Positions 39,182 to 40,185 of a DNA stretch of 64,000 nt are shown piece after piece (the first letter of the stretch is position 1; every line of letters starts with the position of its first letter). The notes below the pieces were generated by a model, which was not told the DNA's origin, ran no database searches, and saw only the letters and a list, made by a program, of their open reading frames with translations. The stretch spans positions 200,942,001-201,006,000 of the forward strand of contig OX597814.1 of the NCBI GenBank assembly GCA_951406725.2. Direction: 5' to 3'. Origin of the DNA: Octopus vulgaris (Eukaryota). Made by a program: the position numbers and the translations under genes.

Positions 39182-39466
39182 AATAATTAATTAACAAGGG
39201 TGAGAGAATTAGATACTAATTTAATAGTATATCTATTCAACACCAAGTGGCCTAGTGCTCCGAGAAACCTGGATTATTATAATATTTTATAATATATTAT
39301 AATATTTTTACAAAATAAATATAAGAGAGTGGTCACTATATGGCTCACTCTAGCACCAGTTAATCCAAAAGGTTTCAACCACAAAAATACATGTTTCCCA
39401 TGAAAGTCAGTACGATTGTTAGCTCACACGGACAGGGCAAATAAAAAATAACAAAAATACAGATTA

Positions 39467-39548
39467 TTTTGGGACAATTGTTTCGCTATTAATGAATTAA
39501 ATGTAATATTACTTACAAAAAAATCCACTTGTAGCTCCTCAGCCAAAA
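39467..39548 (-). ncRNA. Type I hammerhead ribozyme (minus-strand copy)
   Basis: TTTTGG-CTGAGGA-GCTA..TAGC-GAAA-CAATTG-TC-CCAAAA: 6-bp stem I, intact core, GUC triplet. Confidence 0.88.
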
Positions 39549-39921
39549 CTATCAGGATGAAATCCACTCAATCACACGCCAGACTTTACCATAACAATAA
39601 ATACACGTGTGGTTCAATTGATTACATCCGACGTTATAATTCAAATGCCCCTACTAACAGGTAGGTTTCTCGGAGCACTAGGCCACTTGGTGTTGAATAG
39701 ATATACTATTAAATTAGTATCTAATTCTCTCACCCTTATTAATTAATTATAATTATGCTACATTTATTTCTAAATGCAGTATTTGTTTTCCGTGAAAGTT
39801 TGGCGCGCTGTTAGTAGGGGCATTTGAATTATAACGTCGGATGTAATCAATTGAACCACACGTGTATTTATTGTTATGGTAAAGTCTGGCGTGTGATTGA
39901 GTGGATTTCATCCAGATAGTC

Positions 39922-39999
39922 TTGGCTGAGGAGCTACAAGTGGATTTTTTTGTAAGTAATATTACATTTAATTCATTAATAGCGAAACAATTGTCCCAA
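39922..39999 (+). ncRNA. Type I hammerhead ribozyme (plus-strand copy)
   Basis: TTGG-CTGAGGA-GCTA..TAGC-GAAA-CAATTG-TC-CCAA, with palindromic stem III ACAATTGT. Confidence 0.88.
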
Positions 40000-40185
40000 A
40001 ATAATCTGTATTTTTGTTATTTTTTATTTGCCCTGTCCGTGTGAGCTAACAATCGTACTGACTTTCATGGGAAACATGTATTTTTGTGGTTGAAACCTTT
40101 TGGATTAACTGGTGCTAGAGTGAGCCATATAGTGACCACTCTCTTATATTTATTTTATATATATAAATATATATGTGTATATATA

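Follow-up and report, generated by a model that had tools for sequence, protein, structure and literature searches.

The window analyzed here is the whole 64,000-nt stretch of DNA (G000:C1:200942001–201006000), in which the locus of interest is a two-armed insertion spanning positions 39183–40156 (GC 0.33). Its arms, each a 5′-truncated copy of the same repeat unit, meet 5′ to 5′ across 2 filler bases inside a (TA)n tract. Unit positions are numbered such that position 1 is 39663, and the features are as follows:

39040–39182 (no strand): (CA)n/(TA)n microsatellite sequence, the left target flank
39183–39660 (−): arm B, a 5′-truncated retrozyme copy running leftward; unit 146–535 then 1–88, ending at fixed site B
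39183–39311 (−): 130-nt "tail" between sites A and B (unit 495–535 plus 1–88)
39467–39548 (−): type I hammerhead motif with family-type helix I; core start 39542, predicted cut after 39473
39661–39662 (no strand): central head-to-head junction, two filler bases fitting neither arm's template
39663–40156 (+): arm A, a 5′-truncated retrozyme copy running rightward; unit 1–494, ending at fixed site A
39751–39807 (+): 57 nt of the unit (positions 89–145) present in arm A only
39920–40001 (+): type I hammerhead motif; core 39926–39932, GAAA at 39984, predicted cut after 39995
40157–40255 (no strand): (TA)n microsatellite sequence, the right target flank

Both inverted pairs reported in the initial annotation of this DNA are real, the longer measuring 358 nt (39303–39660/39808–40165; 99%, five mismatches) and the shorter 88 nt (39183–39270/39663–39750; 99%, a single mismatch at 39738). 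Because three of the five mismatches in the long pair (40157–40162) lie in the flanking (TA)n, the true end of the arm is 40156; the internal mismatches are those at 39914 and 39921. With three internal differences across ~440 nt of paired arms, the insertion had rightly been judged recent. The second, interlocked pair is present as described, but it is not a separate event: it follows from a tandem or circular template and a 130-nt offset between the fixed ends, the left arm overrunning the stop of the right arm by 130 nt and so creating the 88-nt repeat. Nor are the proposed "several template switches" needed, since the left arm runs unbroken through a natural unit-to-unit junction (146–535, then 1–88) and one central junction with 2 filler bases suffices. 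Positions 39271–39311 (41 nt) occur in arm B only and 39751–39807 (57 nt) in arm A only; each arm therefore holds 41–57 nt missing from the other, and neither is a copy of the other. Both arms carry one variant (the allele at 39872) that was absent from the other loci compared. The flanks are microsatellite, and no target-site duplication was resolvable in them.

A strand-wide motif scan placed both hammerhead cores where they had been annotated, and both are intact: on the plus strand CTGAGGA at 39926, GAAA at 39984 and the cleavage C at 39995, and on the minus strand the core at 39542, GAAA at 39484 and the cleavage C at 39473. The CUGANGA/GAAA/NUH core with helices I–III of a type I hammerhead is present in each. 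Rfam returned no hammerhead match at the locus, neither at the gathering score nor at E ≤ 10, so the assignment rests on the motif scan and covariation; Rfam matches to miRNA families fell below the cut-off, reflect the hairpin and the (TA)n, and were discarded. Scanning the genome (G000, 2.8 Gb) for the hammerhead pattern gave 698 + 665 = 1,363 exact matches and none for a reversed control, and the core was intact in 209 of 211 sampled copies. Between this family and a sister family described below, four helix I pairs were changed on both sides in a compensatory manner, essentially a single two-family comparison, and helices II and III were nearly invariant, although 7 of 12 rows show a broken first pair in helix II. 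What had been annotated as a 43-nt AT-rich loop is predicted instead to extend helix II, capped by a 6-nt apical loop; in all 12 aligned copies the 5-bp stem at its apex was paired. At 39921 the plus copy has C, vs. T in the minus copy and the family, which breaks one helix I pair. The hammerhead fold is predicted to lie 2.7 kcal/mol above the minimum-energy fold.

The locus is an unremarkable copy of a 535-nt repeat that carries a hammerhead, is non-coding and belongs to the non-LTR retrozymes. Its right arm matched many loci at 96–100% over the full length, often in arrays with a 535-nt period; arrays of up to 15 full units per locus were found on many contigs, and dispersed copies without LTRs were mapped at 68 separate loci, likewise spread over many contigs, where their ends lie at fixed sites within (TA)n. 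The annotated absence of a convincing ORF was borne out, the longest Met-started frame in the natural dimer being 52 codons, and the monomer folds far more stably than shuffled sequences (z −5.1). The same layout recurs in a close subfamily (97% identical, 820 pattern matches) and in the sister family (72% identical, unit ~505 nt). The family shows the testable features of a non-LTR retrozyme as these are given in the text of PMC7229834 and in a 2026 preprint (bioRxiv 10.64898/2026.07.22.740005), including a GC content below 45–50% (0.33 for the insertion); its unit length is outside the 170–400 nt of the former and inside the 51–972 bp of the latter.

Of the parent element supposed to be recoverable by BLAST, many near-identical non-coding copies were found, but no ORF-bearing parent among the elements examined. 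Neither the 30 GIY-YIG loci compared nor the repeats lying downstream in the 781-aa and 775-aa Penelope-like families matched the unit (150 of 6,136 candidates were scored). Loose ends in run contigs, followed as a route to such a parent, led only to two non-coding relatives. Since no RT plus GIY-YIG ORF was found in the unit or in the 64-kb window, the unit works like a passenger of Penelope-like elements (PLEs), not like an autonomous PLE. Units within one locus differed by 0.41%, vs. 2.5% between loci, and 7 of 30 multi-unit loci had fixed variants seen in no other sampled locus; this combination of uniform arrays and variants private to a locus would be compatible with rolling copying of a circular template. 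An 11-unit array (G000:C28:10730500–10740400) has a four-unit higher-order variant pattern, which could stem from a multimeric circle or from later duplication. Among runs X1–X20, the unit was found in runs with six different coded organism labels, and the family probably spans related species or labels. We found no paper describing the 535-nt family in the open literature (supplements may hold related junction data).

Insertion ends were mapped at the 68 loci, 36 of which were retrieved with a near-full-unit query, 12 with an internal query, and 20 as hand-picked pattern matches on contig C1. The near-full-unit query favors arms ending at 494, and the hand-picked set favors two-armed or multi-unit loci, not particular ends; the loci being top-scoring or hand-picked, they give no unbiased figure for how often insertions are two-armed. 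The 115 sampled 3′ ends cluster at unit positions 494 (site A, 44 arms) and 89 (site B, 43 arms), and TATAT or ATATA follows within 16 nt in 108 of them. All 45 two-armed loci were divergent, and 42 paired an A end with a B end (two of these with an interrupted arm), one paired A with A (L098), none paired B with B, and two had one other end. Among the 32 loci not chosen by their ends, 18 were A+B, one was A+A and one was of another kind. The sister family behaved similarly, with 15 of 20 two-armed loci A+B, no A+A or B+B, and five with one other end (the calls for L140 and L148 are borderline). The tail between the two sites measures 130 nt in the main family and ~100–105 nt in the sister family. 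Of 42 loci, 28 have an arm A that reaches beyond arm B in the 5′ direction; arm lengths are uncorrelated. Both arms bear hammerheads in 15 of the 27 A+B loci examined in this respect, and the twin hammerheads singled out by the initial annotation are thus no special feature of the locus. Only 4 of 115 5′ ends fell near the hammerhead cut (within unit 325–345) and both arms here cross the predicted cut site; we accordingly rejected a template cut at the hammerhead and take it to have been uncleaved or re-ligated. Although the one-sided tail has already been published, we found no quantification of the A+B rule in the open literature.

The arms of a locus also share haplotypes. Across 27 loci they differed at 45 of 9,939 sites (0.45%), vs. 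a permuted mean of 1.14% (0 of 2,000 permutations). Unit-specific variants in two loci (L068 and L069) line up from the 3′ ends and not from the center, which fits one multimer read twice; the register of private variants in two others (L076 and L173) does not fit such a reading and counts against the explanation preferred below. Shared haplotypes could alternatively stem from conversion between the arms or from a single source locus that dominates. Overall, the pattern favors two primings on one template or on sister templates, and a shared haplotype in arms neither of which is a copy of the other argues against both a simple fold-back and a chimeric-read artifact.

The genome also holds intact elements encoding RT plus GIY-YIG. 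In one 4,270-nt family, all 136 scored copies were 100% identical over a 286-aa query, and the same head-to-head insertions in (TA)n were found. In nine of nine such pairs, picked from the match list, a ~30-nt AC-rich tail was present on exactly one arm, one arm ending at a first site and the other ~30 nt later. Arms within a locus of this element differed at 11 of 28,417 sites, vs. 537 of 235,196 between loci, and in one insertion (L221) both arms carry the same AT-rich replacement in the endonuclease region (unit 4136–4186), a further sign of a common template. This Penelope-like family (L231, G000:C23:4587000–4596999) is very young and has an upstream ORF of >400 codons before the RT-EN ORF. 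Its repeat contains a minimal hammerhead-like motif with a variant core, and a relative (L034) has the canonical core. In the 781-aa family a CxxC motif precedes GIY-YIG, which suggests the Neptune/Nematis type as described in PMC8557442. A third hammerhead family, with two opposite-strand copies (~200–460 and mirror of L039, G000:C1:183008335–183011598), is found at the 3′ end of a 781-aa Penelope-like element, adjoining the (TA)n there.

Published PLE insertions include an inverted 5′-truncated copy and a 30–40-bp tail, often at one end only (PMC8557442, PMC3846280). As described in the text of PMC11167929, the PLE protein cuts and extends both target strands in vitro, the tail is bounded by two internal RNA start sites of the RT, the protein is a predicted dimer, and hammerhead cleavage is not required. 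The insertions studied here have a head-to-head inverted 5′-truncated copy in 45 of 45 cases, a one-sided tail in 42/45 (main family), 15/20 (sister family) and 9/9 (intact element), and the AT-rich or microsatellite target noted above for 108 of 115 ends. In tail length the intact element (~30 nt) agrees with the published 30–40 bp and the retrozyme (130 nt) does not. The unit showed no homology to the intact Penelope-like families examined beyond AT-rich low complexity, so that mobilization in trans is inferred from the footprint.

We consider it likely, with a probability of about 0.8, that the locus is one recent two-armed retrozyme insertion in (TA)n, probably copied in by a trans-acting Penelope-like RT/GIY-YIG enzyme, and that its hammerheads are passengers where they lie. 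The enzyme, probably a dimer, would nick both strands of the (TA)n tract, and each 3′-OH would prime cDNA, both using a single retrozyme RNA or else sister molecules that share a source. One cDNA would start at site A and the other at site B, both would stop at variable points, and the two would then be joined to each other; the template would be a re-ligated circle or a multimer that had escaped cleavage. As to how PLEs produce head-to-head copies with a one-sided tail, three features (one arm per site, a haplotype common to both arms, and arms that do not nest) speak for priming from both target strands rather than for fold-back, with A and B as the candidate priming sites on the RNA. The missing homology, the 130-nt tail and the one A+A locus count against this explanation, as do two published observations: the start site was alike on both strands in vitro (PMC11167929), and no cross-mobilization was seen between the families of another study (PMC3846280). 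A link between animal retrozymes and PLE machinery has been proposed from shared features (text of PMC7229834) and supported by phylogeny (text of the 2026 preprint); here the retrozyme insertions themselves carry the Penelope footprint, beside a very young intact element in the same genome. The locus as such is ordinary; what connects the retrozyme with Penelope-type integration is a rule of the whole family, by which each start site serves one arm, both arms would share a template, and the sites lie 130 nt apart.

A more general reading, which we hold tentatively and at somewhat less than even odds, is that Penelope-type integration is itself double priming, in which an enzyme dimer would use two programmed sites on a single RNA, one per target strand, and the cDNA 3′ ends would be joined. 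Retrozyme RNA, probably a circle copied by rolling reverse transcription, would hijack this process without homology, with the start-site spacing going from ~30 to 130 nt. If true, double priming would account at once for the inverted copies of PLEs, for their one-sided tail and for the arrays of retrozymes.

A different version of the preferred explanation, compatible with its main claim, has two independent RNAs, one per enzyme subunit, with an asymmetric complex setting the start sites and shared haplotypes arising from one source locus or from conversion. The mixed variant register across loci and the independence of arm lengths speak for it, as does the predicted PLE dimer, which could hold two RNAs (PMC11167929). 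However, the alignment of variants from the 3′ ends in L068 and L069 is that expected of one multimer read twice, and the arms of a locus match closely even though many haplotypes coexist between loci. We regard two separate RNAs as a possible but rather doubtful reading.

Fold-back, in which a single cDNA snaps back and copies itself, has been proposed for head-to-head PLE repeats, on an antisense template (PMC3846280). It would account for arms that share haplotypes and for central junctions that often overlap by 1–6 nt, but a fold-back copy must nest in the first strand, whereas each arm here holds sequence missing from the other, and in 17 of 20 loci with a B arm shorter than one unit the A arm holds at least 20 positions absent from B. 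For this locus fold-back is largely refuted by the non-nested arms, and as an explanation at large we judge it very unlikely. Self-priming on a long antisense multimer is less fully excluded, but it leaves the two fixed ends, in the retrozymes and in the intact element alike, unexplained.

The case that follows from the initial annotation is a functional device specific to the locus, in which twin ribozymes, assembled by several template switches, yield an RNA that could self-cleave or form long dsRNA. Regarding self-cleavage, the hammerhead architecture is real, but cutting of a read-through transcript is made less probable by the presence of one sense hammerhead per strand, by the antisense copy being transcribed first, and by predicted burial of the motif: the transcript of the whole insertion is predicted to be 87% paired and, whichever strand is transcribed, to enclose the hammerhead in its duplex. 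Hammerheads with a short palindromic helix III cleave poorly as monomers and mostly need a same-strand tandem partner (PMC4209133), and in the 2026 preprint one of nine dimers is given as cleaved. We predict that the hammerhead serves as an RNA-processing module of the family, working in same-strand tandem arrays, and that the motifs at this locus are probably passengers; read-through RNA from the locus would form a ~350-bp hairpin, likely ADAR-edited rather than a self-cutting ribozyme.

The proposal of long dsRNA as an ADAR substrate fared better, at the family level only. In four runs whose RNA nature is guessed (no run is on record as RNA), A>G/T>C changes in the natural dimer numbered 30/15 in X1, 43/7 in X6, 9/8 in X8 and 0/2 in X3, and every other change occurred at no more than four places in the probable-RNA runs. 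For the window's own unit, two large runs of unrecorded kind gave A>G at 4 and G>A at 3 sites, compared with A>G at 29 sites in X6 and 7 in X8; most of the X6 sites come from one contig at a depth of 5.9. At sites such as 40048, 40080, 40107 and 40117, A>G was seen in 7–23 X8 contigs and was absent from the large runs. A single contig of X6 carried 30 changes, among them the core GAAA at 39985–39987. The excess fits A-to-I hyper-editing of the family, not assignable to this locus, and the family is a likely source of long dsRNA for such editing, with the ribozyme core affected in one contig. Genomic copies showed no such marks, their singleton changes being without A>G excess (8 A>G, 8 G>A, 10 T>C, and 14 C>T).

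Both intact cores and the family's dsRNA editing, which in X1 includes T>C (antisense-strand) sites, would suit a locus-specific device. Yet the same layout occurs at dozens of loci, one junction explains the structure, the hammerhead is buried in the predicted read-through fold, intact cores are the family norm at this age (the 209 of 211 above), and the plus copy already lacks one helix I pair; we find a dedicated device highly improbable. The least credible reading, to which we give almost no weight, is an assembly or chimeric-read artifact: inverted repeats can be mis-assembled, and among the contigs listed for four runs none bridged the junction at 39660–39663 and none had the 39872 allele common to both arms (contigs drop rare variants), but the arms are asymmetric, each with unique sequence, and have three internal differences and a shared variant absent from the other loci compared, and A+B pairing is the rule in three families whose junctions differ.

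In L1 twin priming, both target strands prime on the RNA, giving an inverted 5′ part; the second primer has no set internal annealing point, and the two cDNAs represent neighboring stretches. At the insertions described here, in contrast, neither start site varies, and the template stretches copied into the two arms overlap. The family resembles metazoan non-LTR retrozymes, as characterized in the texts of PMC7229834 and bioRxiv 10.64898/2026.07.22.740005, in its non-coding, low-GC (33%) tandem units with one type I hammerhead each, its dispersed monomers and multimers, its highly self-paired monomer and the co-occurrence of autonomous PLEs. It departs from the retrozymes of the 2020 paper (PMC7229834, main text) in unit length and in its long extended helix II. 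We found no description of paired fixed 3′ ends, of arms joined head-to-head or of targeting to (TA)n in the main text of PMC7229834 or in the text of the preprint. Like the EN+ PLEs treated in PMC8557442, PMC3846280 and PMC11167929, the family has partial tandems, an inverted 5′-truncated copy, a tail at one end only, AT-rich or (TA)n targets and a hammerhead in the repeat; unlike them, its unit is without an ORF, its tail is 130 nt (~100–105 nt in the sister family) and not 30–40 nt, and comparison with the pLTRs of the intact families examined detected no homology. Non-autonomous Chlamys elements such as MRC1, non-coding PLE passengers with multicopy head-to-tail insertions (PMC8557442), offer a further parallel, but they resemble their autonomous partners at the 3′ end and belong to a clade without canonical hammerheads.

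Other repeats were noted in the window. A second, unrelated type I hammerhead lies at 8500–8572 (−), with a 6-bp helix II and a palindromic helix III. Its downstream part recurs as an inverted copy (67 nt, 97%; 8457–8523/9553–9619) that ends at (TA)n and is related to L038; this hammerhead is likely another head-to-head retrozyme or a PLE remnant. An isolated 5S rRNA copy at 43938–44056 (+; Rfam 81.6 bits), situated between SINE-like repeats and with a broken terminal stem, is probably a pseudogene. Fragments at 28338–29222 (−) and 40857–41291 (+) resemble, by their motifs, a PIF1/Helitron helicase, and those at 58072–58944 (−) and 9819–10271 (+) resemble a pogo/Tigger transposase and a CR1/L2-type RT end, respectively. 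A 19-bp minisatellite of ~46 copies (37617–38510) yields long spurious open frames.
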